A program made the position numbers and the translations under genes. From the NCBI GenBank assembly GCA_042563375.1, contig JBHPMF010000004.1, positions 14,902-78,901 on the forward strand: a stretch of DNA of 64,000 bases, read 5' to 3'. Shown here piece after piece: positions 3,895 through 51,794 of the stretch (positions are counted from its first letter, which is position 1; the number at the start of each line of letters is the position of its first letter). The stretch comes from Elusimicrobiota bacterium (GTDB lineage: Bacteria > Elusimicrobiota > Elusimicrobia > JACQPE01). Under the pieces are notes generated by a model. It saw only the letters and a program-made list of their open reading frames with translations, was not told the DNA's origin and searched no databases.

Positions 3895-4461
3895 TTACAC
3901 TTCCTGCGCTTCGCCTTTCAATCTTTGCCACAAATCTTCAACTTCCAGCGTCTTTGCCCAACGCTCCAGATAAGTCATGTCCAGTTTTTCACACTGAACC
4001 TCATAGACCCTGAGAGCATCAGTAAACTGTTTTTCACTGCCTCCGGACAATCTTGCCCATCGTAATTTCGCCAGGATCGTGTCTTCCGGACTTGACACAG
4101 ACATTTTTATGCCCATGAATTGCTCGGTGCATCTGCGCGAAAAACGCGACTGATCGAAACCCTCTCCGGTCAACATCCAAAAATCCACTTTATCGCCGGT
4201 ACTGATATTGATCATGTTAAACATGTCTTGCTTATCGATTGCGTCAAAAATGCTGTTTTTATCCAAATAATAATCAGGCGATGAAAAAGCCTCTGTTAAT
4301 CTCATAACCTGAGTTCTGTTAATCGCGATGACCATGTCAATATCATGCGTAGACCGAGGCTCGCCCTGCAGGCTCGAAACAATGGAACCTGTTATCATAT
4401 ATTCGATTCCCGCCTGATCCAGGGCTTGAATAACATGCGTCAATAATTCCTGTTGTGACAT
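3895..4461 (-). CDS. minimal nucleotidyltransferase-fold protein (uncharacterised family)
   Basis: 188 aa. IEYMITGSIVSSLQGEPRSTHDIDMVI matches the G-S...D-x-D pol-beta-type NTase signature. It overlaps the small upstream ORF by 22 nt. Confidence 0.5.
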   Translation of the reverse strand: MSQQELLTHVIQALDQAGIEYMITGSIVSSLQGEPRSTHDIDMVIAINRTQVMRLTEAFSSPDYYLDKNSIFDAIDKQDMFNMINISTGDKVDFWMLTGEGFDQSRFSRRCTEQFMGIKMSVSSPEDTILAKLRWARLSGGSEKQFTDALRVYEVQCEKLDMTYLERWAKTLEVEDLWQRLKGEAQEV

Positions 4462-6252: not shown

Positions 6253-9200
6253 TCAACCTACCACTTCCCCCGTATCAATGTCATTATTAAGATGCGCGCT
6301 CTCATAATGTTCATAGCGCTCTTTAACAGGCTCGATAAGGCCCCTTAAAAAGTGGATCCCGTAGATAATATGCGTTGAAAGTATGCCCGGCGCTGTCAGG
6401 AATCCCACGTACACGCTTTTCTCGGCGATCGCGGCTCTGGCCATGTCGAATACGAGTCCTGCCAGGTACATTAGAGTAACGCCTAAAAATATCTTCTGGA
6501 ACAACGCGGACATGCTCGAAGCCGCTGTCAAGAATACAAGGCACATGACGAATATGCTGGGCGCAGCATAGGATATCCTTCTTGATGTTTGAGGATAGAG
6601 CTTCCAAAACTGCCCGCGGCAGAACCCGTAGCGGCTCACCTGCGAAAGATGTTCTTTGAATAACGTCCTTCTGTGATGCCACACAAAGACTTCCGGATCA
6701 TAGATTATCTTCTTGCCGGAACGCACGATATCAAGACAAAGCTTTGTATCCTCTCCCGGCCAATACTTCGTCTGAAAACCCCCGAGAGAATCAAACAGGT
6801 CTTTTCTTATGAAAAAATTCACCGACGGGAAATCATCAACCAGCCTTGACTTGCCCGGCCTGTACCGGTTCGCGCAGAATCCGCCTCCCATTACAGTGGC
6901 GAACACCGCGCCTGAGGCTTTTTGCCATATATTGTTCGATTCAGGGGTGACAGCCGGTCCGCATACAGCGCCCACTTGGGGATCCGCAAAATGCCTTACA
7001 GCTTTATCGAACCAGTCAGCTTTAGGATAAGCATCATCATCGAGAAAAGCCAGGATCTCTGCGCTCGCGTGCTTAAAAGCCATGTTGCGCTTTGTCGCCG
7101 GATCCACCGCTCCGGTTGCGATCACGCGCGCATGCGCAGCTGTCCTTATTTCCGGAGTGAAATCATTCGCGGATATTTCATCAGGAAGGATTATGATCTC
7201 GTAATTTTTGTAATCAGTGCCTGTGAATTTAGAAAGAGATTCCGCTATATACGCGTTGATCCTCTTGACCGGGATAACAACGGAAACACTGGGCATATAA
7301 TTCGCGCAAACACTGCCCTCGGGAATGCTCCATTGCTTATCAATGCCCCTTTGCTTGATGAGCATCAGCACATTTATCACCAGGATCCCGGCCCCGACAC
7401 CGCCTACGATATAGAGCACAGAAGCCAGTGTATCGTGAAACAGTATTATAAGCACTGCCTCAAGAATGACTCCCGCTAAAAACGTCCACACAAAACTAAC
7501 GCGTTTTACAGCGTAATTGAAATTCATGATGATCTGAAGGAGGGCATACGGAAGCATGGCAAAGCTGAAAAGCCCGAGGATGGATGCCCCTTCGGGATAT
7601 CCTGACCCCAGAAGCACCCTCATGAACAATCTCGGAGCGATCGCGAAAGCCATGGCGCCTATGGTCGAGATTATTCCGGAAAGGACCAGGCCTTTCCTTA
7701 AAACGCCTGCGGCGCTTCCGGATGAAGCATTGACCCCTGAGGCAATGGGTAAAAGCACTGCCACGATACAACCGTTAACGAATATTATGGAGCGTGCCAG
7801 CACAGCCGCGGCCGCGTATTGCCCTGACAAATGCGATGAGAAATAATGCTTGACCAATATCATGTCAAGCCCGATAAAAAACGCGAAACACACATGCCCT
7901 ATCAATATGGGCAAACTGTATACGAGCGCCTCGGAAAAGAAACCTTTCTCTTTTTCATAGATTTTTGCGTCCATTGACGAGCGGATCCATGGCCATGATG
8001 CCACAACCAGGACGCCCAGTAATGCCGTGAGATTGGCAAACATGGCGCCGTTAAGGCCCAGGCCCACAAGAACCACAAGACCGAACCCAAGCAGAAATCT
8101 CAGGAGTCCTCCGCCTCCGCTTAAAACCCCGAAAAAGAAGAATTTATGCGCTCCCTGCAGCAAGCCCATGCTTACAGGCAGTAAAAACGACACTGCCACG
8201 ATTCCTATTGCCACATAGAACGGGAAACTCTGTTCAACATGAAGGAACTTAGCCACAAAAGGCTTTGCTGCCAAAAGCACAGCGCTCCATGCGATCGCAA
8301 GAAAGAATGCCTGAATATAAGATTTCTTGGCAAAACTCGCGAAACGCTCCATCTGTTTTAAAGCTTTGAATTCAGCGCTGTATTTGGCCACAACCGTCTG
8401 GATCGTGGCAGTAAAAGAACCCGCTATCATTGTGATCGATAATATGGAATTAAGCGCTCCGTAATCAGAGGATGAGAGGTTCCTGCTCATTGTGAACTGA
8501 TAAAAATAAGCAGCAATATTACCCACCATGGAGAACGCGAACACGATGATACTGCTTCTAAGCAGAGTATCCGTGATATCGAGCTTTGAGAACACCTTCC
8601 CCAAAACCGACATCCCGCCCCCCTGCTTTCCCTCTTTCAGCCATTCTCTTTCTTTCTCCTCCCCCCTTGAGGGGGAGGTCGGGTGGGGGGTTTCCGCTAT
8701 CCCCTGCTGCCCGGCGCTCGAGTGAGCCCCATTGAATTTCCCGCGCTTCCTGTAAATCCCCTCTAGCCTGTCATAATAACGCACGATATAGAGCCTATAG
8801 AATATCGCCAGAGTATCAATGCCTGTGCGAAAATAATCACCTGAACTGATGCGCCCCCATTTTTTTCTCCTGCTGAATGTCAACACAACAGGAGCTTCCG
8901 ATATCCTGAAACCCCAGTGATGGGCATTGGCAAGCATCTCAACGTCAAATGCCCATTTCTTACTGAGGATCAAGGGGAACACCTTATTAAGGACTTTTCT
9001 CTTGTAGATCTTTAAGCCTGATTGCGTATCTTTTAACGGCAGATTAAAGAAAACTTTCAGGAAAAACGCGTATACCCTGCTTGCGATCTTGCGCATAAGC
9101 GGGTATTCTATCTCGGAGAATGGGTGGAATTTCGATCCAATGACCACGTCAGCATTCTCCCGCCTCATAACATTAAAAAGCACGCGCAACTGGGCAGGAT

Positions 9201-9564
9201 GAAGCTCAAGGTCAGAATCCAGAAAAACTATGACTTGGCCCGTCGCACGCTTAAAACCCTCTTTGAGAGCATGTCCCTTGCCTCTGTTGCGCAATATGTC
9301 AACAGAAGTGACCATGCTGTATTCTTTTGAGATCCTTTCAAGCTCCTGCGAGGTATTATCGATCGAGCCGTCATTAACAACCACAAGCTCATAATCAGAT
9401 GCTAATTCTCCGGCGCACTTGAGTGTTTCCTGGATGTTCTTATAAATATGGCTCCCCTCATTATGCGCAGGCATGATAACAGAGAGCTTGCCAAGAAAAT
9501 CAGCTCGCTTCTTAAAATGTTTCTTGTTTGTTTTTTGAGACTTTGCGTTGATTACTGTATCCAT
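6253..9564 (-). CDS. tri-modular envelope protein: GT2 (Dpm1/GtrB-like), Wzx/MurJ-type polysaccharide flippase, and membrane-anchored synthase-like GT2
   Basis: 1103-aa uninterrupted ORF. The N-terminus has LSVIMPAHNEGSHIYKNIQETL...VVVNDGSIDNT...FLDSDLE. The middle has about 12 hydrophobic helices typical of oligosaccharide flippases. The C-terminus has VSVVIPVKRINAY...AFLDDDA...PGEDTKLC...QVSRYG (QxxRW-like) plus C-terminal TM helices. Confidence 0.75.
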   Translation of the reverse strand: MDTVINAKSQKTNKKHFKKRADFLGKLSVIMPAHNEGSHIYKNIQETLKCAGELASDYELVVVNDGSIDNTSQELERISKEYSMVTSVDILRNRGKGHALKEGFKRATGQVIVFLDSDLELHPAQLRVLFNVMRRENADVVIGSKFHPFSEIEYPLMRKIASRVYAFFLKVFFNLPLKDTQSGLKIYKRKVLNKVFPLILSKKWAFDVEMLANAHHWGFRISEAPVVLTFSRRKKWGRISSGDYFRTGIDTLAIFYRLYIVRYYDRLEGIYRKRGKFNGAHSSAGQQGIAETPHPTSPSRGEEKEREWLKEGKQGGGMSVLGKVFSKLDITDTLLRSSIIVFAFSMVGNIAAYFYQFTMSRNLSSSDYGALNSILSITMIAGSFTATIQTVVAKYSAEFKALKQMERFASFAKKSYIQAFFLAIAWSAVLLAAKPFVAKFLHVEQSFPFYVAIGIVAVSFLLPVSMGLLQGAHKFFFFGVLSGGGGLLRFLLGFGLVVLVGLGLNGAMFANLTALLGVLVVASWPWIRSSMDAKIYEKEKGFFSEALVYSLPILIGHVCFAFFIGLDMILVKHYFSSHLSGQYAAAAVLARSIIFVNGCIVAVLLPIASGVNASSGSAAGVLRKGLVLSGIISTIGAMAFAIAPRLFMRVLLGSGYPEGASILGLFSFAMLPYALLQIIMNFNYAVKRVSFVWTFLAGVILEAVLIILFHDTLASVLYIVGGVGAGILVINVLMLIKQRGIDKQWSIPEGSVCANYMPSVSVVIPVKRINAYIAESLSKFTGTDYKNYEIIILPDEISANDFTPEIRTAAHARVIATGAVDPATKRNMAFKHASAEILAFLDDDAYPKADWFDKAVRHFADPQVGAVCGPAVTPESNNIWQKASGAVFATVMGGGFCANRYRPGKSRLVDDFPSVNFFIRKDLFDSLGGFQTKYWPGEDTKLCLDIVRSGKKIIYDPEVFVWHHRRTLFKEHLSQVSRYGFCRGQFWKLYPQTSRRISYAAPSIFVMCLVFLTAASSMSALFQKIFLGVTLMYLAGLVFDMARAAIAEKSVYVGFLTAPGILSTHIIYGIHFLRGLIEPVKERYEHYESAHLNNDIDTGEVVG
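8655..8700. repeat. family A palindromic repeat, copy A1 (inside the GT2-flippase-GT2 ORF)
   Basis: TCTCCTCCCCCCTTGAGGGGGAGGTCGGGTGGGGGGTTTCCGCTAT. The palindromic core is CCTCCCCC-TTGA-GGGGGAGG. Confidence 0.9.
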
Positions 9565-13364: not shown

Positions 13365-14465
13365 CTATTTCGCAACTTTTTTGGAAGGCTTTTTCTTTTT
13401 ACTCTCTTTAGCTTTCTCTTTCGCTGAAGCCAGGATCCCAAGCACCTTATCCAAAAGATCTTGCGGGTAAAGCTTTCCGACAAGACCCTGTCTTACGTTC
13501 ACGGAAATATCCTTGAATTTCTGAATATCCTTTTGAGCGAACGGCACGACTTTAAGCCCGCGCTTTTTCATGGCTTTAAGGGCAGTACTATTTTCCTTTG
13601 TTGTAAGGTCCCGCAAACGCGCCATGTATTTTTTATTAAGCCTCGAGAGTATCGCCTGATCCTGCTTACCTACCTTGTCATAAAACTTTTTTGAGATCAC
13701 AACAGCTCCGACTGAAAAACATATGGGTTTATCAGTCACATACTCCACCTTTGTGAACCATTGCAGGGCAATGGCAGCGAGATGGGAAGCATAAACCGTG
13801 TCAATAAGGCCTGTTTGAAGGGATGTCAGGACATCCGGAAGAGAAAGCGAGATCGGGGTTATGCCGAACCCTTTAAAAAACGCCTGCGGCATGGGATCCC
13901 CCTGCCAGGTCCAGACTTTAAGCTTTTTTAAATCATCAGCGCTTTTGATCGGAGATTTTGAATAAAGATGGATGAATCCCGCATCTGCCCAATCAGAAAG
14001 CACAAAACCTTTTTTCTCGAATTCCTTTTCAAAATACGGCGTAAGATGCTCTCTTAAAAGACTTAATTCAGAAACCTTGTCAAAAAGAAAAGGTATCTCG
14101 AACACCCTTACCTCAGAGAGGATCTCGCCTAATCCAAAGCCCGTGAAGCCTGAGGCGTGAAGCTGGCCGAACCTGATCTTCCTTAAAACATCTTTCTCGT
14201 CTCCGGACACGCCGCCCGGATAGATCTTGAGTTTTAATCTGCCTTCTGTCTCCTTTTGCAATTCCTTGTCGAATTCGCGCAACACATTCATCCATGTGGA
14301 TCCTTCAGGCGCTATTGTGGCGAATTTCATTTCAAGCGCAAGCAAACTTGAAGCTCCCAAAAATAGAAGTAGCGCGGCAGCTTGTATGCCGCTCTTAAGA
14401 AACGGGGTACAAGCCCCCGCGCTACGAAGAAATTTCGCAAAAATCAAACTTTTAGAATAATTCAT
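13365..14465 (-). CDS. dctP: TRAP transporter substrate-binding protein (TatT-associated type)
   Basis: 366 aa. Signal peptide, then MKFATIAPEGSTWMN...LKIYPGGVSGDEKDVLRKIRFGQL, as in DctP-family SBPs. Lys-rich C-terminal tail. A repeat overlaps the 5' end (see findings). Confidence 0.85.
   Translation of the reverse strand: MNYSKSLIFAKFLRSAGACTPFLKSGIQAAALLLFLGASSLLALEMKFATIAPEGSTWMNVLREFDKELQKETEGRLKLKIYPGGVSGDEKDVLRKIRFGQLHASGFTGFGLGEILSEVRVFEIPFLFDKVSELSLLREHLTPYFEKEFEKKGFVLSDWADAGFIHLYSKSPIKSADDLKKLKVWTWQGDPMPQAFFKGFGITPISLSLPDVLTSLQTGLIDTVYASHLAAIALQWFTKVEYVTDKPICFSVGAVVISKKFYDKVGKQDQAILSRLNKKYMARLRDLTTKENSTALKAMKKRGLKVVPFAQKDIQKFKDISVNVRQGLVGKLYPQDLLDKVLGILASAKEKAKESKKKKPSKKVAK
14369..14425. 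repeat. family C palindromic element C1 (inside the dctP 5' coding end)
   Basis: The arms GTAGCGCGGCAGCTTGTA (14369-14386) and TACAAGCCCCCGCGCTAC (14408-14425) are complementary at 16 of 18 positions. Confidence 0.8.
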
Positions 14466-15336: not shown

Positions 15337-15448
15337 AATTACCCTATTTTATAACAACTCTTCTTTCTTTTCTGGCAACCTCAAACTTTCGCAGTGGTGA
15401 GCAAGCGCAGCAAGTCGAATCCAAGCCTGCGCCTACCCTGCACCTTCT

Positions 15449-15476
15449 CGGTAGTCTCAGGCTTTAGCCTGTGTCT
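15449..15476. repeat. family B repeat, half-copy B1 (inside the carB 3' end)
   Basis: CGGTAGTCTCAGGCTTTAGCCTGTGTCT, to be compared with B2 and B3. Confidence 0.8.
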
Positions 15477-18400
15477 TCTCTTCTCTCCCTTCTTCTCCCC
15501 ATTGGCGGGGAAGACTCTGCGGGGACGACAGAGCATGGATTTTTTTATTCCGCGAAGTCCAGTCACCCAAAGAACGCACCAAGATCCTTTCCTGCACCAG
15601 GCTCTTAACAGCTTTAAGAGCTGCCAAAGCTCCTGCCTGCGTTGTGATATACGGAACAGACAGATCAACGCATGCCCTTCTGATCTTATACCCATCTGAG
15701 CCTATCCTGCCGCCTCTTGGGATATTGAGCACCAGGTGGATATCCTTGTTCTTCATCATGTTTATGAGCTTGGGGTCATCTTTAAACTTTGGCACATGAC
15801 TTACTCTGATGCCCTTGCCAAGAAAGAACTTCTGCGTTCCTTCTGTTGAATATACTTCAAAGCCCAGGTCAACGAATTCCTTTGCTATAGGCGCGAAAGC
15901 TTCCTTTTGCTCACCCCTGCCTATGCTAAAAAACACATTTCCTGTTTTGGGGATCTCCTTAAAAGCCGAGGCTTGAGCCTTGTAAAAAGCTTTCCCGAAA
16001 TCTGAATCTATACCCATCACTTCCCCTGTTGATTTCATCTCAGGGCTGAGCACGGGATCGACCCCGAGAAGTTTTAAAAACGGGAAAACAGGCGCTTTGA
16101 CTGTTACAAAATCAGGCTCAAAATACTCGGCCAAACCGAGATTTTTCAGCTTTTTGCCGAGCATTATTTTTGTTGCGATCTTGGCAAGAGGCACGCCTAT
16201 AGTCTTACTAACATATGGCACAGTTCTTGAAGCCCGCGGATTAACCTCAAGAACAAGGATGTTATCACCCTTGATCGCATACTGCACATTCATCAGTCCT
16301 GATACCCTCAACGCCCTGGCAAGTTTTTTTGTGCAAGAGATAATACGGTTTTTTACCTCCCTATTGATCGTTTGAGGCGGTATAACGCAAGTGGAATCAC
16401 CTGAGTGAACACCTGCTTCTTCGATATGCTCCATGATCGCTGCCACAAAAACATCCTCTCCGTCTGATAACGCGTCAACATCGACTTCTATGGCATTGTC
16501 AATGAATTTATCAATTAGTACAGGATGCTCAGGGCTTACACTCACTGCCTCTTTCATGTATCCCGCCAATTCCCGGGCATCATCAACGACTTTCATGGCT
16601 CTGCCGCCTAAAACGTACGACGGCCTTACAAGGACCGGGTATCCTATCTTGTCCGCCACGTCACTTGCTTCCTTAAATGACATTGCAGTTCCCCATGCGG
16701 GGGACGGGATATTGATCTCGCGCAGCAAAGCCCCGAATTTTTTCCTGTCTTCTGTGATATCCGTGTTTTCAGGAGGCGTGCCTAATATCCTGATACCTGC
16801 CTTGTGTAACCTCACGGCCATATTGATCGATGTCTGCCCTCCGAACTGCAGGATCACTCCATACGGCTTCTCCGTATCAACGATATTGGCCACATCCTCA
16901 TATGTCAAAGGCTCAAAGTAAAGCTTGTCTGAAATATCAAAATCAGTGCTCACGGTTTCCGGATTATTATTCGCGATAAGCGCTTCCACGCCTTCTTCGC
17001 GCAATGCGGATACAGCATGAACGCAGCAGTAGTCAAACTCAATGCCTTGTCCTATGCGGATCGGACCTGAACCCACAATGAGCACTTTTTTCTTCTCTGA
17101 TGGCAATGATTCATCTTCTCTCTCATAGGTGGAATAAAAATACGGTGTATGGGCTTTAAATTCAGCTGCGCATGTATCAACAAGCTTGAATGTGGGTGTT
17201 ATGCCCTTTTGCTTCCTGAAATCCCGGATACGATCCTCTGTTTTTCCTGTGATATTTGCTATTTGAATATCTGAAAATCCCATTTGCTTGGCAGTAGAAA
17301 TGGAGCTCTCGTTAAATTTGATCTTCTTCCCATACTCATAGATCTGCTTGATCTTGAACAAGAACCACTCATGCACGCCCGTTAACCTGCTTATCTCCCT
17401 GATGCTCATGCCTATAGCCATTGCATCGCGGATATAAAGAAGTCTCTTGTGAGTCGGAACCTTAAGATTACGGATGATCTCAGGCTTGTCTTTGATGATC
17501 TTATCCTTGGCATCATGGCCCAGCCCGGATCTGCCCACTTCCAATGAGCGTATTGCTTTTTGCAAAGCTTCTTCAAAAGTCCTGCCGATCGCCATGGTCT
17601 CCCCTGTTGATTTCATCTGGGTCCCGATGCGCTTATCAGCGGTCTCAAACTTGTCAAAAGGCCATCTTGGGATCTTCACCACCACATAATCGATAGTAGG
17701 CTCAAAACACGCAAGCGTTTCTTTTGTCACGTCGTTCTTGATCTCATCTAAAGTCATGCCCAGAGATATTTTCGTGGCGATCCTGGCTATTGGATACCCG
17801 GTAGCTTTTGAAGCAAGAGCGGAGCTCCTTGAAACCCTTGGATTGACTTCCACTACGCGATATTCTCCGGTGTCATAGCTCATCGCGAACTGGACATTGC
17901 AAGCGCCTATTATCTTCAGCGCCCTGATGATCCTTATGGCAGCTGATCGCAATGTCTGGAAGTCATTATTGTTTAAAGTCTGGGTAGGAGCCACCACTAT
18001 GCTTTCTCCGGTATGGATACCCATTGGATCGAGATTCTCCATCGGGCAGATCACAATGCAATTATCCGCGCTGTCGCGGACCACTTCGATCTCGAACTCG
18101 CCCCAACCTTGCGTCCCCAAAATCGCCTGTTCAATAAGCACTTGGCCGATAAGGCTCAAGCGTAAACCCTGCTGCGTAAGATCAAAAAGCTCTTCATCAT
18201 TAAAAGCGATCCCGCCGCCTGTTCCGCCGAGCGTATAAGCAGGCCTTATAATAAGAGGAAACCCGTATTTATGGGCAAACACTTCAGCGCTTTGGGTATT
18301 CTCAACAGTCTTGCTTTCAGGTATAGGCTCTTTTAGCTCGTGCATGCGATTGCGGAATTTTTCTCTATCCTCGCTCTCTTCAATGCTTGATATGGAAGTT

Positions 18401-18750: not shown

Positions 18751-18783
18751 TATGTAGAAAACCTCTTAACCTCTCTGAATTCG

Positions 18784-18845
18784 CCTCTCCCCTTGAGGGA
18801 GAGGCCCCGCCTTTGGCGGGGGTGAGGGGTTTCCGCTATTTCTCT
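18784..18845. repeat. family A repeat, copy A2 (carB-carA intergenic)
   Basis: CCTCTCCCCTTGAGGGAGAGG-CCCCGCCTTTGGCGGGG-GTGAGGGGTTTCCGCTATTTCTC. Two stacked hairpins, sharing the GGGGTTTCCGCTAT tail with A1 and A6. Confidence 0.9.
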
Positions 18846-18883: not shown

Positions 18884-20032
18884 TCAATTACCCCTCACCC
18901 TAACCCTCTCCCTCAGGGGGAGAGGGGAATCAATATCCCTCACAAACTCATCAAAAATAAACTCCACATCCCTTGGTCCGGGATTGGCTTCAGGGTGCAT
19001 CTGCACGGTTCGGATCGGCAGTTTTGCATGCCTCATACCCTCGACGCTCCCGTCATTGAGGTTTATATAAGTGACTTCAAGACCTGTTCCCGCGAGACTC
19101 TGGGCATCTATCGCAAATCCGTGATTCTGGCTTGTGATATGGACTTTGTTATCAATAATATTTTTAACAGGCTGATTCACTCCTCTATGCCCGAATTTCA
19201 ATTTATATGTTTTAGCGCCCAATGCCAGGCCAACGATCTGGTGGCCAAGGCAGATCCCGCTTATGGGCATCTTTGCATGAAGTTCGCGCACGCAGGCAAT
19301 AGCGTCTGTTGCCATTTCAGGATTCCCGGGGCCATTGGCAAGAAATAAACCATCAACATTTAATTTGAGGATATCCTGCGGTTTTGCATTGTAGGGCATG
19401 AGCACGACATTCACATTTCTTTTTGTGAAATTGCTGATTATGCTTTTCTTGATCCCTGTGTCGATTATCGCTATGGTCTTGCCTGCGCCGATACCTATCC
19501 TTTTGCGAGCTTTAACAGATACTTTGCGTAAAAGCTCCAATGAAGCGTAATTTGCTGCGCTCTGCGCCTGCTTAAGCACTTTACTCTCATTTATCGGACG
19601 CTGTGACACTGCTAAAACAGCATTCATCACACCTTCTGTTCTTACGATCTTTGTGATAAGCCTTGTATCAATGCCTTCTATCCCGGGTACGCGGTTTTGT
19701 TTAAGGAAAGTGCCCAGGCTGATATTCGAATCTCTGTGCTTGTAGAATTGGCTGAGTTCTCTTATTACAAAGCCTTCTGCTTGTACGCGGCTGGATTCAA
19801 GATTCGCTTTATTGACTCCGTAATTGCCTATTAACGGATACGTTGATACGAGTATCTGGCCTTTGTAAGACGGGTCAGTAAGGGATTCTTCATATCCCAC
19901 AAAAGACGTGTTAAAGACTATTTCGCCTGAAACTGTTTTTTCAGCGCCAAAACCCGCGCCCGTAAATACTGTACCGTCTGAAAGAGCTAATACAGCTTTT
20001 AGTTTTTTATTATTCAAATCCGTTGTCTCCAT
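18884..20032 (-). CDS. carA: carbamoyl-phosphate synthase small (glutaminase) subunit
   Basis: 382 aa. Catalytic GICLGHQ and the HPE triad. The C-terminal DSPLPLRERVRVRGN is encoded by repeat copy A3. Confidence 0.95.
   Translation of the reverse strand: METTDLNNKKLKAVLALSDGTVFTGAGFGAEKTVSGEIVFNTSFVGYEESLTDPSYKGQILVSTYPLIGNYGVNKANLESSRVQAEGFVIRELSQFYKHRDSNISLGTFLKQNRVPGIEGIDTRLITKIVRTEGVMNAVLAVSQRPINESKVLKQAQSAANYASLELLRKVSVKARKRIGIGAGKTIAIIDTGIKKSIISNFTKRNVNVVLMPYNAKPQDILKLNVDGLFLANGPGNPEMATDAIACVRELHAKMPISGICLGHQIVGLALGAKTYKLKFGHRGVNQPVKNIIDNKVHITSQNHGFAIDAQSLAGTGLEVTYINLNDGSVEGMRHAKLPIRTVQMHPEANPGPRDVEFIFDEFVRDIDSPLPLRERVRVRGN
18891..18927. repeat. family A repeat, copy A3 (inverted relative to A2; inside the carA 3' end)
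   Basis: CCCCTCACCCTAACCCTCTCCCTCAGGGGGAGAGGGG. Its reverse complement parallels A2. Confidence 0.85.
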
Positions 20033-20150
20033 TCTGTCATCCTGAACTGGTTTCAGGATCTCATGTGGTTTTTCACTTCAATTAATAACCGGCAAATCAA
20101 TAATGTACTTTCTTATTGAGATCCTGAAACCAGTTCAGGATGACAGAATG
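20030..20150. repeat. family E: 34-bp perfect inverted repeat pair filling the guaA-carA spacer
   Basis: Arm 1 is 20030-20063 (CATTCTGTCATCCTGAACTGGTTTCAGGATCTCA). Arm 2 is 20117-20150, its exact reverse complement. Each arm is also a hairpin on its own (ATCCTGAA/TTCAGGAT). Confidence 0.95.
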
Positions 20151-25425: not shown

Positions 25426-25488
25426 CAGGGTCACGTCTTCAGAATTCAATTTCCGAAGTTGAAATTGAATTCTGAAGATGTGACCCTG
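25426..25488. repeat. 28-bp-stem hairpin in the divergent lysE / orphan-gene region
   Basis: CAGGGTCACGTCTTCAGAATTCAATTTC - cgaagtt - GAAATTGAATTCTGAAGATGTGACCCTG (one G/A mismatch). Confidence 0.9.
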
Positions 25489-27483: not shown

Positions 27484-27559
27484 ATCACAATCCTAAACTC
27501 TTCAAAATACTTTCCTCTTCGCAATACACCCCTTATCCTCCCCTCGCCCTCCCTCATAT

Positions 27560-27604
27560 TTCTCCTCCCCCTTGAGGGGGGAGGTTGGGTGGGGGTGATA
27601 AAGT
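27560..27604. repeat. family A repeat, copy A4 (between the ABC ATPase and permease genes)
   Basis: TTCTCCTCCCCCTTGAGGGGGGAGGTTGGGTGGGGGTGATAAAG. Confidence 0.9.
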
Positions 27605-27640
27605 TTTTCAGCTTTATTTCGTCATTCATCATTTCTTGAT

Positions 27641-28712: not shown

Positions 28713-28800
28713 ATTATCCCCTGCGCAACAATTTTTTCTGCCTACACTAATATAGAACATGAGAACTCTAAAATTGCAAGTTTTAAATTCAACTATCTCT

Positions 28801-28882
28801 CCGGTAGCCTCAGGCTTCAGCCTGTGCCTTTTCTGCTCTGTTCTGCAAAAGAACAGACACAGGCTGAAGCCTGAGGCTACCG
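28801..28882. repeat. family B repeat, full nested palindrome B2
   Basis: CCGGTAGCCTCAGGCTTCAGCCTGTGCC...CTGTTCTGCAAAAGAACAG...ACACAGGCTGAAGCCTGAGGCTACCGG. The outer arms are about 26 bp with one mismatch next to the loop. An inner 7-bp hairpin is also present. Confidence 0.9.
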
Positions 28883-28903
28883 GAAAAAATATATCAAGAA
28901 AAA

Positions 28904-30289: not shown

Positions 30290-30367
30290 AATAAAAGGAT
30301 TATCAAACTTTAAACAAAGCGGGTCAAGTATGCTCTCTTATTTCCCAAACAAACTGCCGCCCCTCTC

Positions 30368-30414
30368 TTTCTCCTCCCTCTTGATGGGGGGTGTTGGGTG
30401 GGAGTGATAAAGAA
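30368..30414. repeat. family A repeat, copy A5 (degenerate; MBL-cupin intergenic)
   Basis: TTTCTCCTCCCTCTTGATGGGGGGTGTTGGGTGGGAGTGATAAAGAAG. Shares the TGATAAAG tail with A4. Confidence 0.8.
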
Positions 30415-30736: not shown

Positions 30737-30911
30737 ATTCACCTCCGAATACTTCGATGCCCGATAGCAATAAAAGATTCTCCTTTCTCGCGGGATCCTC
30801 CCCGCGCTTCTAGCATCTAATCATAAAAAGAAGCGTATAGGTTCATCTTCGATCGACAAAGTCTGGAAAAGTAACCGGTCTTCGCTCATATAACTCCCGT
30901 TCTGCCCCTCT

Positions 30912-30945
30912 TGGTAGCCGCAGGCTTTAGCCTGTGCCTGTTCTG
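30912..30945. repeat. family B repeat, half-copy B3 (cupin/HAD divergent intergenic)
   Basis: TGGTAGCCGCAGGCTTTAGCCTGTGCCTGTTCTG. Confidence 0.8.
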
Positions 30946-35347: not shown

Positions 35348-36142
35348 TCAATTAAAGTACTTGATTGCATTTTTAAAGATCTGGACTCCTTCGCCCTGTT
35401 TTGGAAACTTGCCCTGAGCTTTTAGCCTCGTCCATGATGGATGATTATGCGGCGCAAGATACCCTTCAGGATGCGGCATTATTCCGAAGATCTTTCCTGT
35501 TGGATCACAGATCCCGGCTATCGCCTCCAGGCTGCCGTTTGGATTGGCAGGATACTTATCCGTGGGATCGCCGGCATCATCAGTATATTGTGCTACAACC
35601 TGTTTTTGGCTGAATAATTTTTGGATCAATTCATCATCCTGAGCGAAAAATTTACCCTCACCATGCCTTACCGGAAGAAACAACTGTTCAATGCCTTTTG
35701 TGAATACGCATTTTGAATCAGGATTGACTTTCATATGGACCCACCTATCCTCAAATCTGCAAGAATCATTGACTGTCAGGGTAGCGCGCTGTGTCTTGTA
35801 ATCATTATCAAATCCCGGCAAAAGCCCGAGTTTCACCAGAGTTTGGAAACCATTGCAAATGCCTATAACAAGCCCTTCTTTCTGGATAAATTTATCCATA
35901 TCATCCCGTAAGCCATGTTTGAATTTAACAGCCTGAACCGTACCGGCTCCCAGATGATCTCCGAATGAAAACCCGCCGATAAAAGCAAGGATTTTATAAT
36001 CAGAGAGTTTCTTTTCTCCGCTCAGTAAGTCGCTTAAATGCACCTTATCAGATGCTGCGCCCGCAATCTCGAATGCAAAAGATGTTTCCTCCTCGCAATT
36101 CAACCCGTTTCCTGTTAGAATCAATACCTTTGGTTTAGCCAT
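35348..36142 (-). CDS. purQ: FGAM synthase glutaminase subunit
   Basis: 264 aa. Catalytic GICNGFQ and HPEG. Directly downstream of purL. Confidence 0.9.
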   Translation of the reverse strand: MAKPKVLILTGNGLNCEEETSFAFEIAGAASDKVHLSDLLSGEKKLSDYKILAFIGGFSFGDHLGAGTVQAVKFKHGLRDDMDKFIQKEGLVIGICNGFQTLVKLGLLPGFDNDYKTQRATLTVNDSCRFEDRWVHMKVNPDSKCVFTKGIEQLFLPVRHGEGKFFAQDDELIQKLFSQKQVVAQYTDDAGDPTDKYPANPNGSLEAIAGICDPTGKIFGIMPHPEGYLAPHNHPSWTRLKAQGKFPKQGEGVQIFKNAIKYFN

Positions 36143-36143
36143 G

Positions 36144-39100
36144 TTAAATTCCTCTCAAGGGTTTTTGCCAGACCTGCTTAAGCCGTTCCACGTCAGTCTG
36201 GATGATCGGATTTCCTTCCAGCCCAATAACATTAAATTTCGAATCCTCCCTTACCTTGCCCACATAAGCATATGGACACCCTTTTATCACCTTTTCAAAA
36301 TTATAACGCGTGGCATCCGATACTGTCACGATAAGCCTGCTGTTTGATTCAGAGAAAAGCAGACAATCATCCGTATCAACACCGCGCTGCGGCACTTCTC
36401 TTAGATCAGCATCAATGCCCAGCCCTCCGGCAAAAGCTGTTTTCGCCAGTGCAACGCCAAGACCGCCCTTGACCACAGCGTGAGATGAATTTATCAATTC
36501 CTTGCTCATGGCTTTGCTTAACGCCTTATAGAGTTTCAATGCTTGCTTAGATTTAACTTTCGGGATCTTGTTACCTATACAAGGATCTCCCTCTGATACT
36601 TCAGAAAGAATCCTGTAATATTCCGAAGCCCCCATCTCATTAAAGGTCGTGCCTAGAACGCATACATAATCCCCGGGACGCTTGATATCAACTGTTACCG
36701 CCCTGCGCACATCATTTATCTTTGAGATGATAGATACAAGCAAGGTAGGAGGAACGGATATCGCAGGATCGACCCTGGTGAAATCATTGAACATGCTGTC
36801 TTTGCCTGATATCAATGGTATCCTGAAATCCTTCAACGTATCATAGAGCCCTTGATTAGCGCGAACAAGCTGGGCAAGCTTGTAATGCAGATGGGCAAGT
36901 TCTTCTTCGCTGTAATCCTTGAAATCTTCAGGGATCGATCTTGGCCAGCAGAAATTATCAAGACCCGCCATGAAATCAAGCCTGCCTCCTGCGGAAATCG
37001 TCTTTCGCACAGCCTCATCAACACATGAAGCAGCCATGTGATACGTATCGATATCTGAATAGAATGGATTAATACCCTCAGAAAGGACTATTCCCTCTTT
37101 TTCTCCCAATCCAGACATAAACACAGCCGCATCACTTGGCACGTCAGAATCTTTGCCCGCAAATGGTTTCACAACAGTCAAACCCTTAACTTCATGGTCG
37201 TATTGCCGTGATTTCTCCTCGATCGAGCATATATTGAGCCTTGAAAGCATGTTCTCAAGTACCGGGGTCAGATTATCAACTTTTACAGGCGTTGGCTCTT
37301 TAAAACGTTTCTGCTTCCATTTCGCGGTTAATTCATATCGCGGATATCCATTATGAAAAAAGTCCATGTCTAGAAACGCGACCGTCTTATCACCGTATTT
37401 AATATGGAACTTCCCGGAATCAGTGAACTGCCCAAGATTCGTGGCTTCGACATCACGTTTTTTAGCAAGACTCAGCAATTCATCAAGTTTTGCCTGCGGC
37501 ACAGCCAGAGTCATCCTTTCCTGAGCTTCAGAAAGAAGTATCTCCCACGGCTGACATCCTTTATATTTCAATGGGACCTTCTCCAGATCGATCTGAGCTC
37601 CATTGCTCATTTTCGCCATTTCACCCACAGAAGAAGAAAGTCCTCCTGCTCCATTATCAGTTATCGCACAATAAAGCCCTTTATCTCTTGCCTCAATGAG
37701 CATATCTGACATTTTTTTCTGAGTTATGGGGTCTCCGATCTGCACAGCCTGCATCGGAGAATCCTTATCAAGCTCAAGGGATGAAAATGTTGCTCCGTGA
37801 ATACCATCCTTACCCACCCTTCCTCCTACCATGACAATACAATCTCCGGGTGCAAGGCTTTTCTCATGAGATGGCTTCCCTGCTATTGTGCCGGGCATAA
37901 TGCCCACTGTTCCGCAGAACACAAGAGGCTTGCCGGAGTATTTTTGGTCGAATATCTCCCACCCTCTGCCATAAGGAATACCGCTTTGATTCCCTCCGTC
38001 TATTGTCCCCTGATGAACGCCCGCTCGCACTCTTCGCGGATGAAGCATGCCTGAAGGAACATCTTGTGAGAATGGGTCCCCAAAACAATAACCCCAAACA
38101 TTGATAAGCGGCTTAGAGCCCATGCCTGTGCCCATTGGATCGCGGTTCACGCCCACTATCCCTGTCATGGCTCCGCCATAAGGCTCCAGAGCTGAAGGGC
38201 TATTGTGCGTTTCAACCTTATAAACGAGATTGATCTTGTCATTGAATTTAATTACCCCTGCGTTATCTTTGAAAACCGACAATAACCAGTCAACCTTCTC
38301 CACCTTCTTTTTCTTTTCCGTCCGCGCAGACCTGGCATCCGGTATCTCATACTTCCAGTTCGAAATATCAAAATCCTGCTCCCCTGATTCCCCCTGAGAA
38401 ACATCCCCATCTGCCCCCTTTTCCTCTTCTGCTATCTCCTCCCCACTTGTGGGGGAGGCCAGATGGGGGGTCCCCGCTATTTCCTCCGTAACTCTCTTAA
38501 TATAAGTATCAAACAAAGAATCAATCTTTGTCACTTCCCCTTTCTCATCCGTAAAATCTATCAAGGCATTGAAGATCTTATGCTGGCAATGCTCAGACCA
38601 AGTCTGGGCCAATGCCTCAAGCTCAACATCGGTCGGATCTTCAGATAATCCCATCTCTTTTCTTTTCTCAAGCGCTTCGGGCTTCTTAAGATAATCCCTG
38701 ATAGCGCACATTTCCTTAAGATTAAAAGCCAGGGTCCCCTTCTTGCTTATATCGATCAATTCCTCGTCACTCACATTAAGGTTTATCTGATTCACAGTGA
38801 CCCCTTGATCACCTTTGACCCTGGGCGGATCGATCTTTAAACCATTATTCTTCCAGTCTTCAAAACTCTGAACCTCGATTCTCTCGATCAGAAGATTGGC
38901 AAGCAGTTCCTTTGAGATTCTATTGGCATCCTCCTCGGAAATATCACCTGAAATCATGTATTGTGTGGCTGTATGCACTCCTGCGTTATCAGAAAAAGCA
39001 TCCGCAAAAATATCTTTTAAGAGTTTTTTCAGGGTTGAGCCCACATTATCCGTCACTCCCGGCTTGAATGAAACAAGGATTGACCACGTGAAATTTATCT

Positions 39101-39443
39101 CCCTTTCTTCTTTTTTCTCCTCTCTTCGTAGCGCGGCAGCTTGCATGCCGCTTTCCCCTTCTCTTCTCTCTCCCGCAGATGAACTCCCCCACGACTCCTG
39201 GACAATCGGATCCGTTACTATTTCCTTTGCCTTCCCAGCCTGCTCAGGAGTCAAAACATCCAGCATAAAGACCTTTCTTGTCCTGACATCTTTGACGCTC
39301 ATGCCAAGAAAACTGTTTATCTTGTCCCTTGTAGCCACTCCAAGCGGATCCGCCACGCCTTCTTTGCATCCCACTTCGACCCAATGAAACACAGTTGCGC
39401 CCTTATCTGCGACTTGCTCTAAAACGATTGTTTTTTCTTCCAT
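36144..39443 (-). CDS. purL: FGAM synthase II with two fused N-terminal PurS-like modules (PurS-PurS-PurL)
   Basis: 1099 aa. Residues ~20-85 (...KEGVADPLGVATRDKINSFLG...VTDPIVQESW) and ~115-190 (SFKPGVTDNVGSTL...LLANLLIERIEVQSF) both look like PurS. The PurL core follows (ETHNSPSALEPYGGAMTGIVGVNRD, two AIRS-like repeats). Confidence 0.9.
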   Translation of the reverse strand: MEEKTIVLEQVADKGATVFHWVEVGCKEGVADPLGVATRDKINSFLGMSVKDVRTRKVFMLDVLTPEQAGKAKEIVTDPIVQESWGSSSAGERREGESGMQAAALRREEKKEEREINFTWSILVSFKPGVTDNVGSTLKKLLKDIFADAFSDNAGVHTATQYMISGDISEEDANRISKELLANLLIERIEVQSFEDWKNNGLKIDPPRVKGDQGVTVNQINLNVSDEELIDISKKGTLAFNLKEMCAIRDYLKKPEALEKRKEMGLSEDPTDVELEALAQTWSEHCQHKIFNALIDFTDEKGEVTKIDSLFDTYIKRVTEEIAGTPHLASPTSGEEIAEEEKGADGDVSQGESGEQDFDISNWKYEIPDARSARTEKKKKVEKVDWLLSVFKDNAGVIKFNDKINLVYKVETHNSPSALEPYGGAMTGIVGVNRDPMGTGMGSKPLINVWGYCFGDPFSQDVPSGMLHPRRVRAGVHQGTIDGGNQSGIPYGRGWEIFDQKYSGKPLVFCGTVGIMPGTIAGKPSHEKSLAPGDCIVMVGGRVGKDGIHGATFSSLELDKDSPMQAVQIGDPITQKKMSDMLIEARDKGLYCAITDNGAGGLSSSVGEMAKMSNGAQIDLEKVPLKYKGCQPWEILLSEAQERMTLAVPQAKLDELLSLAKKRDVEATNLGQFTDSGKFHIKYGDKTVAFLDMDFFHNGYPRYELTAKWKQKRFKEPTPVKVDNLTPVLENMLSRLNICSIEEKSRQYDHEVKGLTVVKPFAGKDSDVPSDAAVFMSGLGEKEGIVLSEGINPFYSDIDTYHMAASCVDEAVRKTISAGGRLDFMAGLDNFCWPRSIPEDFKDYSEEELAHLHYKLAQLVRANQGLYDTLKDFRIPLISGKDSMFNDFTRVDPAISVPPTLLVSIISKINDVRRAVTVDIKRPGDYVCVLGTTFNEMGASEYYRILSEVSEGDPCIGNKIPKVKSKQALKLYKALSKAMSKELINSSHAVVKGGLGVALAKTAFAGGLGIDADLREVPQRGVDTDDCLLFSESNSRLIVTVSDATRYNFEKVIKGCPYAYVGKVREDSKFNVIGLEGNPIIQTDVERLKQVWQKPLRGI
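38436..38486. repeat. family A repeat, copy A6 (inside purL)
   Basis: CTCCTCCCCACTTGTGGGGGAGGCCAGATGGGGGGTCCCCGCTATTTCCTC. Confidence 0.85.
39128..39152. repeat. family C repeat C2 (inside purL, in the linker between the PurS-like modules)
   Basis: GTAGCGCGGCAGCTTGCATGCCGCT is identical at 24 of 25 positions to 14369-14393. Confidence 0.85.
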
Positions 39444-48864: not shown

Positions 48865-48936
48865 GCACCGGGGTCAAAGCTTAGAATTGCGCTTTTCGCT
48901 ATGCAAAAGCGCAATTCTAAGCTTTGACCCCGGTGC
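48865..48936. repeat. 32-bp perfect-stem hairpin just 3' of the thioredoxin-like gene
   Basis: GCACCGGGGTCAAAGCTTAGAATTGCGCTTTT (48865-48896), an 8-nt loop, then the exact complement at 48905-48936. Confidence 0.95.
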
Positions 48937-51728: not shown

Positions 51729-51730
51729 GG

Positions 51731-51778
51731 TCCACCCCCACCTAAACCTCCCCCCTCAAGGGGGAGGAAAATAAAGAA
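51731..51778. repeat. family A repeat, copy A7 (cysS-rlmB intergenic; G-tract arm inverted)
   Basis: TCCACCCCCACCTAAACCTCCCCCCTCAAGGGGGAGGAAAATAAAGAAG. Confidence 0.8.
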
Positions 51779-51794
51779 GGGGAAATTTCAAACA

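Follow-up and report, generated by a model that had tools for sequence, protein, structure and literature searches.

An in-frame copy of a dispersed hairpin repeat inside the PurS–PurL fusion protein of an Elusimicrobiota bacterium

Within a 64,000-nucleotide stretch of an Elusimicrobiota genome (assembly GCA_042563375.1, contig JBHPMF010000004.1, positions 14,902 to 78,901; the whole stretch is called the window here), the gene purSL, which encodes a PurS–PurL fusion and subunit of FGAM synthase, carries an extra segment of 57 residues that begins with a copy of a short hairpin repeat. This copy is homologous to the other members of a repeat family, here termed A, whose copies are dispersed through the window, mostly in spacers between co-directional genes. 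We consider it likely that the PurL segment represents a short, non-autonomous and selfish palindrome, similar to the repetitive extragenic palindromes (REPs), that has become fixed in frame in a permissive loop of purSL and is most likely neutral baggage for the enzyme.

A repeat-bearing insertion in PurSL

A profile built from the copies (nhmmer) finds seven A-family units across the 64 kb (E values from 5e-14 to 1e-5), and the hairpin pattern has 10 overlapping matches in the window against 0.17 expected. Each unit is about 36-57 nt long and has a head rich in C, a hairpin of 8 bp (CCTCCCCC/GGGGGAGG) and a tail rich in purines; on the minus (coding) strand it reads approximately ATAGCGGAA-ACCCCCCACCC-GA-CCTCCCCC-TCAA-GGGGGGAGG-AGAAAGA. 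The 8-bp stem is predicted in six of the seven copies, 93% of the cells in the family's hairpin are paired, and one change, from C:G to U:A, is compensatory. With a C-run in one arm and a G-run in the other, the hairpin is very GC-rich, whereas the genome has a GC content of 46%.

The copy in PurL, A6 (38424-38480, minus strand; nhmmer E = 2e-11), encodes IAGTPHLASPTSGEEIAEEE, and the peptide from its region is IAGTPHLASPTSGEEIA. In the same orientation, it can be aligned with copy A1 (8646-8700, minus strand) along 57 nt with just two 1-nt gaps, and this alignment spans the non-palindromic head and tail besides the stem. Copy A1 lies inside an open reading frame (ORF) of 1103 aa for a glycosyltransferase (6253-9564, minus strand), where it encodes IAETPHPTSPSRGEEKE at aa 288-305, a stretch that the ORF reads as QQGIAETPHPTSPSRGEEKEREW. 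An earlier, sequence-only reading of this DNA had proposed that one repeat lies in the same orientation and frame in PurL and in the glycosyltransferase ORF; both translations are confirmed exactly, and the similarity is far beyond chance. Its further statement that an intergenic copy, A2, would read similarly in the corresponding frame is borne out as well (VREIAETPHP).

The five other copies place the PurL segment in a wider family. Copy A2 (18774-18839, minus strand) is intergenic between carA and carB and has an extra inner hairpin between head and stem. Its neighbour A2b (18888-18935, plus strand; nhmmer E = 4e-9) is inverted and forms the last 15 codons of carA (DSPLPLRERVRVRGN), with the carA stop codon (18884-18886) just outside the copy. 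Together A2 and A2b make an inverted doublet (inverted repeat I10: 26 nt, 92% complementary); the other five copies are singletons. Copy A3 (27552-27605, minus strand) separates the genes for an ABC ATPase and an ABC-2 permease, A4 (30361-30414, minus strand), whose hairpin has decayed, separates cupin and beta-CASP RNase genes, and A7 (51730-51779, plus strand), which is inverted, separates cysS and a SpoU methylase gene. All four intergenic copies sit in short spacers between co-directional genes.

How much the shared frame means is a separate matter. The A element is open in four of its six frames, the inverted copy A2b is read differently to give the CarA tail DSPLPLRERVRVRGN*, and other genomes, discussed below, read the element as xPHxxSPxxGEE, as PPPxLPxxGGG or, from the opposite strand, as PPPxRGRxGGG. 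Because four of six frames are open and other frames are used elsewhere, two intragenic copies would share one frame with a chance of about 1 in 4. The agreement between the PurL and glycosyltransferase copies in this respect therefore carries little weight, and the sequence-only reading overstated it. Since the unit joins a C-run arm to a G-run arm, each open frame encodes Pro-rich sequence and, after it, a stretch rich in Gly, Glu and Arg. Such a peptide would act as a flexible, hydrophilic linker, which may make the element unusually well tolerated in proteins.

The host gene itself is intact. purSL (36144-39443, minus strand) is an unbroken ORF whose 1099-aa product is identical to NCBI MFC1521159.1, from a metagenome-assembled genome (MAG) of an Elusimicrobiota bacterium, on a contig of 79 kb. 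Its Pfam domains (PurS, FGAR-AT_linker, AIRS and AIRS_C) make up a complete architecture, and the protein keeps every invariant column of a 115-sequence alignment. The gene for PurQ (GATase_5; 35348-36142) lies directly downstream; upstream lies an adenylosuccinate-lyase-like gene. An AlphaFold2 model built on the same 115 sequences has a mean predicted local distance difference test score (pLDDT) of 83.7 and a predicted template-modelling score of 0.87, and its best Foldseek matches are the Salmonella and human FGAM synthetases and the PurL proteins of Thermus and Thermotoga (1t3t, 3viu and related entries). By its domains, invariant residues, adjacent purQ and fold matches, the host gene is a PurSL/FGAM synthase gene.

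The extra segment, which we call insertion 2, occupies aa 325-381 (38301-38471, minus strand; 57 aa, 171 nt), where occupancy in the alignments is below 10%. The interval 38290-38490 translates to VTEEIAGTPHLASPTSGEEIAEEEKGADGDVSQGESGEQDFDISNWKYEIPDARSARTEKKKKVEKVDWLLSVFKDNAGV; PurL reads VTEEIAGTPHLASPTSGEEIAEEEKG, with TPHLASPTSGEE and TPHLASPTSGEEIAEEEK inside the repeat-bearing segment. Whether alignments are made with 20 or with 114 homologues, insertion 2 has no counterpart in any of them (114 of 114), and it is also missing from 80 metagenomic purSL loci, as judged from matches spanning about 2.6-3.0 kb (best 50% identical; scan of metagenome contigs). The nearest homologues, from a collection of 5.8 billion proteins, are 54-62% identical and all about 990-1010 aa long. 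At this site homologues read TEEIG--KEKDWL, with a length variation of two residues between them, and the site as a whole is a length-variable connector of 2-6 residues. The expectation that ordinary PurL proteins have only a short connector here (TEEIG--KEKDW) thus holds, and the comparison of orthologues, which could have revealed an equivalent segment free of the repeat, found none. By these comparisons, insertion 2 is specific to this lineage.

The segment is free of stop codons, and its length is divisible by three. It is acidic, as had been claimed (14 D/E versus 8 K/R), but it is 57 rather than about 65 aa long; and it does lie ahead of the conserved DNAGV motif, ending 11 residues short of it (EKVDWLLSVFK-DNAGV) rather than directly before it. 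BLAST coverage falls to 65% at the insertion, and sequence alignments to entries of the Protein Data Bank resume just past it, at aa 390-394. In the AlphaFold2 model, residues 328-381 have a pLDDT of about 30 and no secondary structure; they connect a helix (310-324) to a strand (387-389) that leads into the conserved DNAGV segment. The modelled geometry fits a flexible loop tolerated at a length-variable connector. That an essential enzyme tolerates such a loop, as had been suggested, agrees with the intact ORF, the invariant columns kept, the complete domains, the adjacent purQ and the unstructured loop of the model.

Not all of insertion 2 can be traced to the repeat. Only its first ~19 aa demonstrably derive from it, at the extreme N-terminal edge and immediately after the conserved TEEIA. 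Relative to the intergenic copies, the hairpin of A6 (38438-38458; coding-strand sequence CCTCCCCCACAAGTGGGGAGG), of 7-8 bp, shows slight degradation, with a folding energy of -13.1 kcal/mol versus -16.3 in A3 and A7. The remainder (38301-38414, minus strand; ADGDVSQGESGEQDFDISNWKYEIPDARSARTEKKKKV) comprises 114 nt or about 38 aa (ADGDVSQGES...TEKKKKV), is purine-rich on the coding strand and is significantly matched neither in the window nor in the 119 genome loci described below (L001-L119). The proposal that the loop is repeat-derived therefore stands for its beginning and not for these other 114 nt. Two larger constructions were considered and rejected. The whole 171-nt insertion is not one longer element: the similarity between A1 and A6 ends after 57 nt, and the score of the flank is reached by 21 of 300 shuffles. 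Nor is the direct repeat EEIA...EEIA around the PurL hairpin a target-site duplication, as ATAGCGG belongs to the head of the element (A1, A2 and A6) and GGAGGAGA to its tail.

Copy A1 is positioned just past the N-terminal GT2 domain of the glycosyltransferase ORF and ahead of a membrane domain beginning near M318. The order of parts in this 1103-aa ORF is GT2, repeat-coded linker, multi-pass membrane domain (from about M318) and a second GT2, and homologues that pair GT2 with a flippase-like domain have a different domain order. What looks like one ORF may be a pair of genes that are read through the repeat, as the internal ATG (M318) follows a G-rich stretch.

The repeat core in other genomes

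Species-representative genomes were scanned with a degenerate pattern of the core, CCCCCACC-N3-5-CTCCCCC-N3-6-GGGGAGGA. It occurs at no fewer than 119 loci in more than 15 phyla, several genomes having multiple copies, whereas we estimate that fewer than one match would be expected under uniform composition. The phyla and classes among the matches listed are Planctomycetota, Alpha-, Beta-, Gamma- and Deltaproteobacteria, Chloroflexota, Nitrospirota, Bacteroidota, Abditibacteriota, Omnitrophota, Elusimicrobiota, Saccharibacteria and Doudnabacteria. The consensus is CA-CCCCCACC-YAR-CCTCCCCC-loop-GGGGGAGG. Across 128 copies from the 119 loci, the gap that the pattern leaves unspecified reads Y-A-R-C, with the C, which extends the stem, present in 107 of 108 four-base gaps; CA precedes the core at -2/-1, and the flanks are random beyond -2/+1. 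Because positions left free by the pattern are conserved and the flanks are random, the core is a discrete unit of about 36 nt that has been inserted into unrelated contexts. The exact core sequences do not occur in the full-text literature searched, and Rfam, searched with the window at gathering thresholds and with one A copy at E<=10, gives no meaningful match.

Six of these foreign copies lie in frame in long ORFs and are flanked on either side by Pfam domains. One Doudnabacteria MAG has a copy between the domains of GMP synthase (GuaA; L100:~3970-4000) and another between the CPSase and GATase domains of CarA (L114:~3900). The others are found in a GT4 glycosyltransferase of Saccharibacteria (L092), in MutS2 of a member of the Bacteroidaceae, ahead of the SH3/Smr module (L028), in a double M16 peptidase (L090) and, at two sites, in an ImuB-like polymerase (L047). 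In several of these in-frame copies a second, different hairpin follows, giving a doublet insert of about 30 aa.

Among viral sequences (IMG/VR; loci L121-L146), 27 contigs carry the motif, and many of them belong to one group of clusters resembling phages or gene transfer agents (GTAs). These clusters encode a portal, a prohead protease and a host-specificity-like protein of about 1300 aa, with the motif found at the 5' end of the protease ORF or close to it. Such GTA/phage-like genes on viral contigs are the only recurrent clusters around the 130 copies of the motif that were compared.

One reading of this distribution is that the ~36-nt unit (CA-CCCCCACC-YAR-CCTCCCCC-loop-GGGGGAGG-R) is a single mini-element that spreads horizontally across more than 15 phyla, including groups of the candidate phyla radiation and Pseudomonadota, as well as phage/GTA-like contigs, and that it is a recurrent source of surface loops and linkers in proteins such as PurL, GuaA, CarA and MutS2. 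We regard this as a tentative idea, conceivable but on the doubtful side. The spread across phyla could mean that one element was transferred horizontally or that simple C-run/G-run hairpins arose convergently.

PurSL proteins of other lineages have also acquired repeat-derived sequence, independently of the insertion in the window. Two loci from Planctomycetota (L227:10763-10966, protein P0073; L229:7957-8160, protein P0056) have insertions in a loop neighbouring the insertion-2 site; these consist of heptamers in tandem (GCGAGCC.../GCGTGCC...), which form a long hairpin when folded, and L229 has a AACCTCCCGC...GCGGGAGGTT hairpin in addition. In two metagenomic purSL genes (L192:~2106 and L217:~4629), a related hairpin, CCTCACC..CCCTCTCC-loop-GGAGAGGG, lies in frame in a variable linker that corresponds to aa ~705-725 of the PurL in the window.

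How the loop may have arisen

The A element would spread as selfish DNA. A likely agent is a single-strand transposase of the HUH/RAYT type (RAYTs being the transposases associated with REPs) that would act in trans and recognise the hairpin together with its 5' head; a conserved single-stranded head beside a hairpin is the kind of substrate that HUH transposases recognise. Insertions would land at random, and a needed gene would retain only copies without stop codons that leave the frame undisturbed and hit a surface loop able to accept them. For the remaining ~38 aa, insertion 2 would draw either on a pre-existing, lineage-specific loop or on later growth out of purine-rich sequence.

Several observations weigh against this account. 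The hairpins fold with energies close to what composition-matched shuffles give (z from -0.1 to -3). The 64-kb window yielded no transposase, no target-site duplication or terminal inverted repeat was seen at the A copies, where the central hairpin is the only inverted repeat, and there is no recurrent gene family within 2.5 kb of the motif at genome loci L001-L119. Only 19 of the 57 residues can be traced to the repeat. The low pLDDT does not prove disorder or surface exposure of insertion 2; on the question of a surface loop, raised by the sequence-only reading, the model speaks for an unstructured loop with pLDDT ~30 and not for its exposure. The sequence comes from a MAG, and the gene is known from DNA alone, not from a transcript or protein. 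Finally, no relative exceeds about 50-62% identity in any collection searched; a contig look-up by exact protein, aimed at close relatives, has none on record, and a subfamily-specific DNA pattern for the head has 0 matches in metagenome contigs. With relatives only ~50-62% identical, insertion 2 is undatable and its ratio of nonsynonymous to synonymous substitution rates (dN/dS) is not measurable.

The explanation closest to our own holds that a lineage-specific disordered loop came first and that the repeat landed inside it later. Two thirds of insertion 2 have no similarity to the repeat, disordered loops are the most permissive of targets, and there is independent length variation nearby in other PurSL lineages, all of which speak for an older loop. 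Yet the repeat sits at the extreme N-terminal edge after TEEIA and not in the middle of the insertion, and all 114 homologues lack a loop at the site. We judge this course of events rather unlikely, and it differs from the explanation that we favour in the order of events only: an older lineage-specific loop may have been hit at its edge, or a loop seeded by the repeat may have grown later.

The second alternative, also raised by the sequence-only reading, is that the enzyme has recruited the loop, with an acidic, repeat-derived segment gaining a function such as contact with PurQ, gating of the ammonia channel or ATP site, or some other interaction, and being kept by selection. The segment has features that invite such a view: it is 57 aa long, strongly charged and 11 residues ahead of the conserved DNAGV strand, and three PurSL proteins of Planctomycetota have insertions in a neighbouring loop. 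The partial degradation of the A6 hairpin relative to the intergenic copies would also be expected if constraint at the protein level had taken over, but neutrality predicts decay of the hairpin equally. Moreover, no relative has the loop, so no conservation can be demonstrated, AlphaFold2 gives the loop no structure, and the element is present in many unrelated proteins as well as in intergenic DNA. Nothing that was tested supports recruitment, and we hold it to be improbable.

An artefact of assembly or binning, in which the repeat collapsed or produced a chimeric contig inside purL, has in its favour that the source is a MAG contig and that dispersed repeats are the classic break points of short-read assemblers; it is nevertheless highly improbable here, given that purL sequence continues on both flanks, collinear, in the same frame and with conserved residues on each side, and that the insert has a length divisible by three, is free of stops and includes 114 nt of unique sequence. 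Scarcely credible is the idea that the segment is missing from the mature protein through removal at the RNA level or ribosome skipping, as with the byp elements of Magnusiomyces mitochondria or gene 60 of phage T4: there is a stable GC hairpin within the coding sequence, and bypass of GC-rich palindromes is known from one mitochondrial system of fungi, but the segment is open and in frame and so requires no bypass, no take-off and landing codon pair with an adjacent stop codon was seen, and Rfam finds no ribozyme or intron. A selfish REP-like palindrome carried as neutral baggage in a permissive loop thus remains the explanation that we favour for the PurL segment.

Other palindromes and comparison with known systems

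purSL has received a second kind of repeat. Insertion 1 of PurL (39093-39182, minus strand; aa ~88-117, SSSAGERREGESGMQAAALRREEKKEEREIN) is about 24 aa longer than the corresponding part of homologues, as defined by alignment occupancy; pLDDT is below 50 at aa 88-114, and the coding strand is 78% purine. Inside it, antisense to purSL, lies a GTAG-tagged REP unit (39128-39152, plus strand; GTAGCGCGGCAGCTTGCATGCCGCT), which encodes SGMQAAAL and matches positions 14369-14393 at 24 of 25 nt, against a chance expectation of 0.01. The matching unit is part of an inverted dimer (14369-14426, with units at 14369-14393 on the plus and 14402-14426 on the minus strand) within the opening ~40 codons of an ORF for DctP (13365-14465), and it is read in the same frame as in PurL (SGIQAAAL versus SGMQAAAL). 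PurL therefore carries two unrelated families of palindromic repeats, one in each of its two specific insertions. The DctP domain (a solute-binding domain of TRAP transporters) starts only at aa 48 of its ORF, and the start or signal peptide of this ORF may be partly repeat-derived or mis-called.

Further palindromes occur elsewhere in the window. A GTAG-containing palindrome at 15443-15481, from a third family with more copies at 28800-28884 and 30906-30944, includes the carB stop codon (15457-15459), and a weak A-like hairpin (15490-15514; E = 0.09) lies ahead of this stop. Intergenic inverted repeats at 20030-20150, 25426-25488 and 48865-48936, with arms of 28-34 nt that are 96-100% complementary, are unrelated to the A family; these three may be additional palindromic elements or strong terminators.

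Among characterized elements, the GTAG/CGTC REPs, described from many species, offer one close comparison. They are stem-loops of 20-40 nt found mainly between co-directional or convergent genes, and their intragenic copies, within ORFs or at the ends of ORFs, encode 20-30 aa, and it has been suggested that they are neutral because flexible linkers or loops accommodate them (Di Nocera et al. 2013, PMC3733652). The A element is like them in size, hairpin, dispersed copies and, as counted in the 64-kb window, preference for intergenic sites. It differs in that neither the A family nor the 128 foreign copies have a GTAG or CGTC tag, having instead a CCCCCACC-YAR head, whereas the unit GTAGCGCGGCAGCTTGCATGCCGCT of insertion 1 fits the GTAG REP class directly.

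The A element can also be set against other classes. The inverted doublet A2/A2b resembles a REPIN, the paired arrangement of REPs, but most copies in the window are singletons, and no RAYT was found in the 64 kb. REPINs and RAYTs are reportedly the subject of a study by Bertels and Rainey from 2011. We rejected an identity as a miniature inverted-repeat transposable element, as there are neither terminal inverted repeats nor target-site duplications and no conserved direct repeats flank the copies. Fungal mitochondria have mobile GC clusters and byp elements, which are GC-rich palindromic mini-elements in coding genes of AT-richer genomes. These are organellar, however, and byp sequences are skipped by the ribosome, whereas the A element is in frame and presumably translated.

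The significance of the PurL insertion lies partly in its clarity and partly in what it suggests about tolerance. In-frame palindromic inserts are already known from intragenic REPs and from the Rickettsia palindromic elements (RPEs); the A element is a further case of that phenomenon. It shows cleanly, in a host other than Rickettsia, that palindromic selfish DNA can sit in a central metabolic enzyme which remains unbroken, in a gene that two different repeat families have entered. If base composition, through the C-run and G-run arms, predetermines a harmless Pro/Gly-rich peptide, this would explain in simple terms why proteins tolerate some repeats. There is also a practical side, as such segments inflate protein length, break local alignments and create spurious 'fusions' and tails in the annotation of MAGs.

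In behaviour, the A element resembles the RPEs (Ogata et al. 2000 and 2002, as summarised in PMC10969869). In-frame insertions of the same type are seen here in PurL, the glycosyltransferase ORF and the CarA tail of the window, and elsewhere in GuaA, CarA, GT4, MutS2, M16 and ImuB proteins. The elements RPE-1 to RPE-10 are palindromic selfish DNA placed in frame within housekeeping genes, at positions inferred to suit the protein fold (PMC10969869), and both systems consist of dispersed palindromes that enter unrelated housekeeping genes in frame and add a family-specific peptide while leaving the protein intact. RPEs have a length of about 100-150 bp and a range confined to Rickettsia, whereas the A element measures 36-57 nt, was found in an Elusimicrobiota MAG and has a core present in more than 15 phyla; its peptide, unlike that of an RPE, is rich in Pro, Gly and Glu and predicted to be unstructured. 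By size, host and composition the A element is thus not an RPE, a distinction drawn from description and not from sequence comparison. The core motif shared by many phyla and housekeeping proteins would be the more interesting result if it holds up, and a single mini-element spreading across the phyla would be a pan-bacterial counterpart of the RPE phenomenon of Rickettsia.

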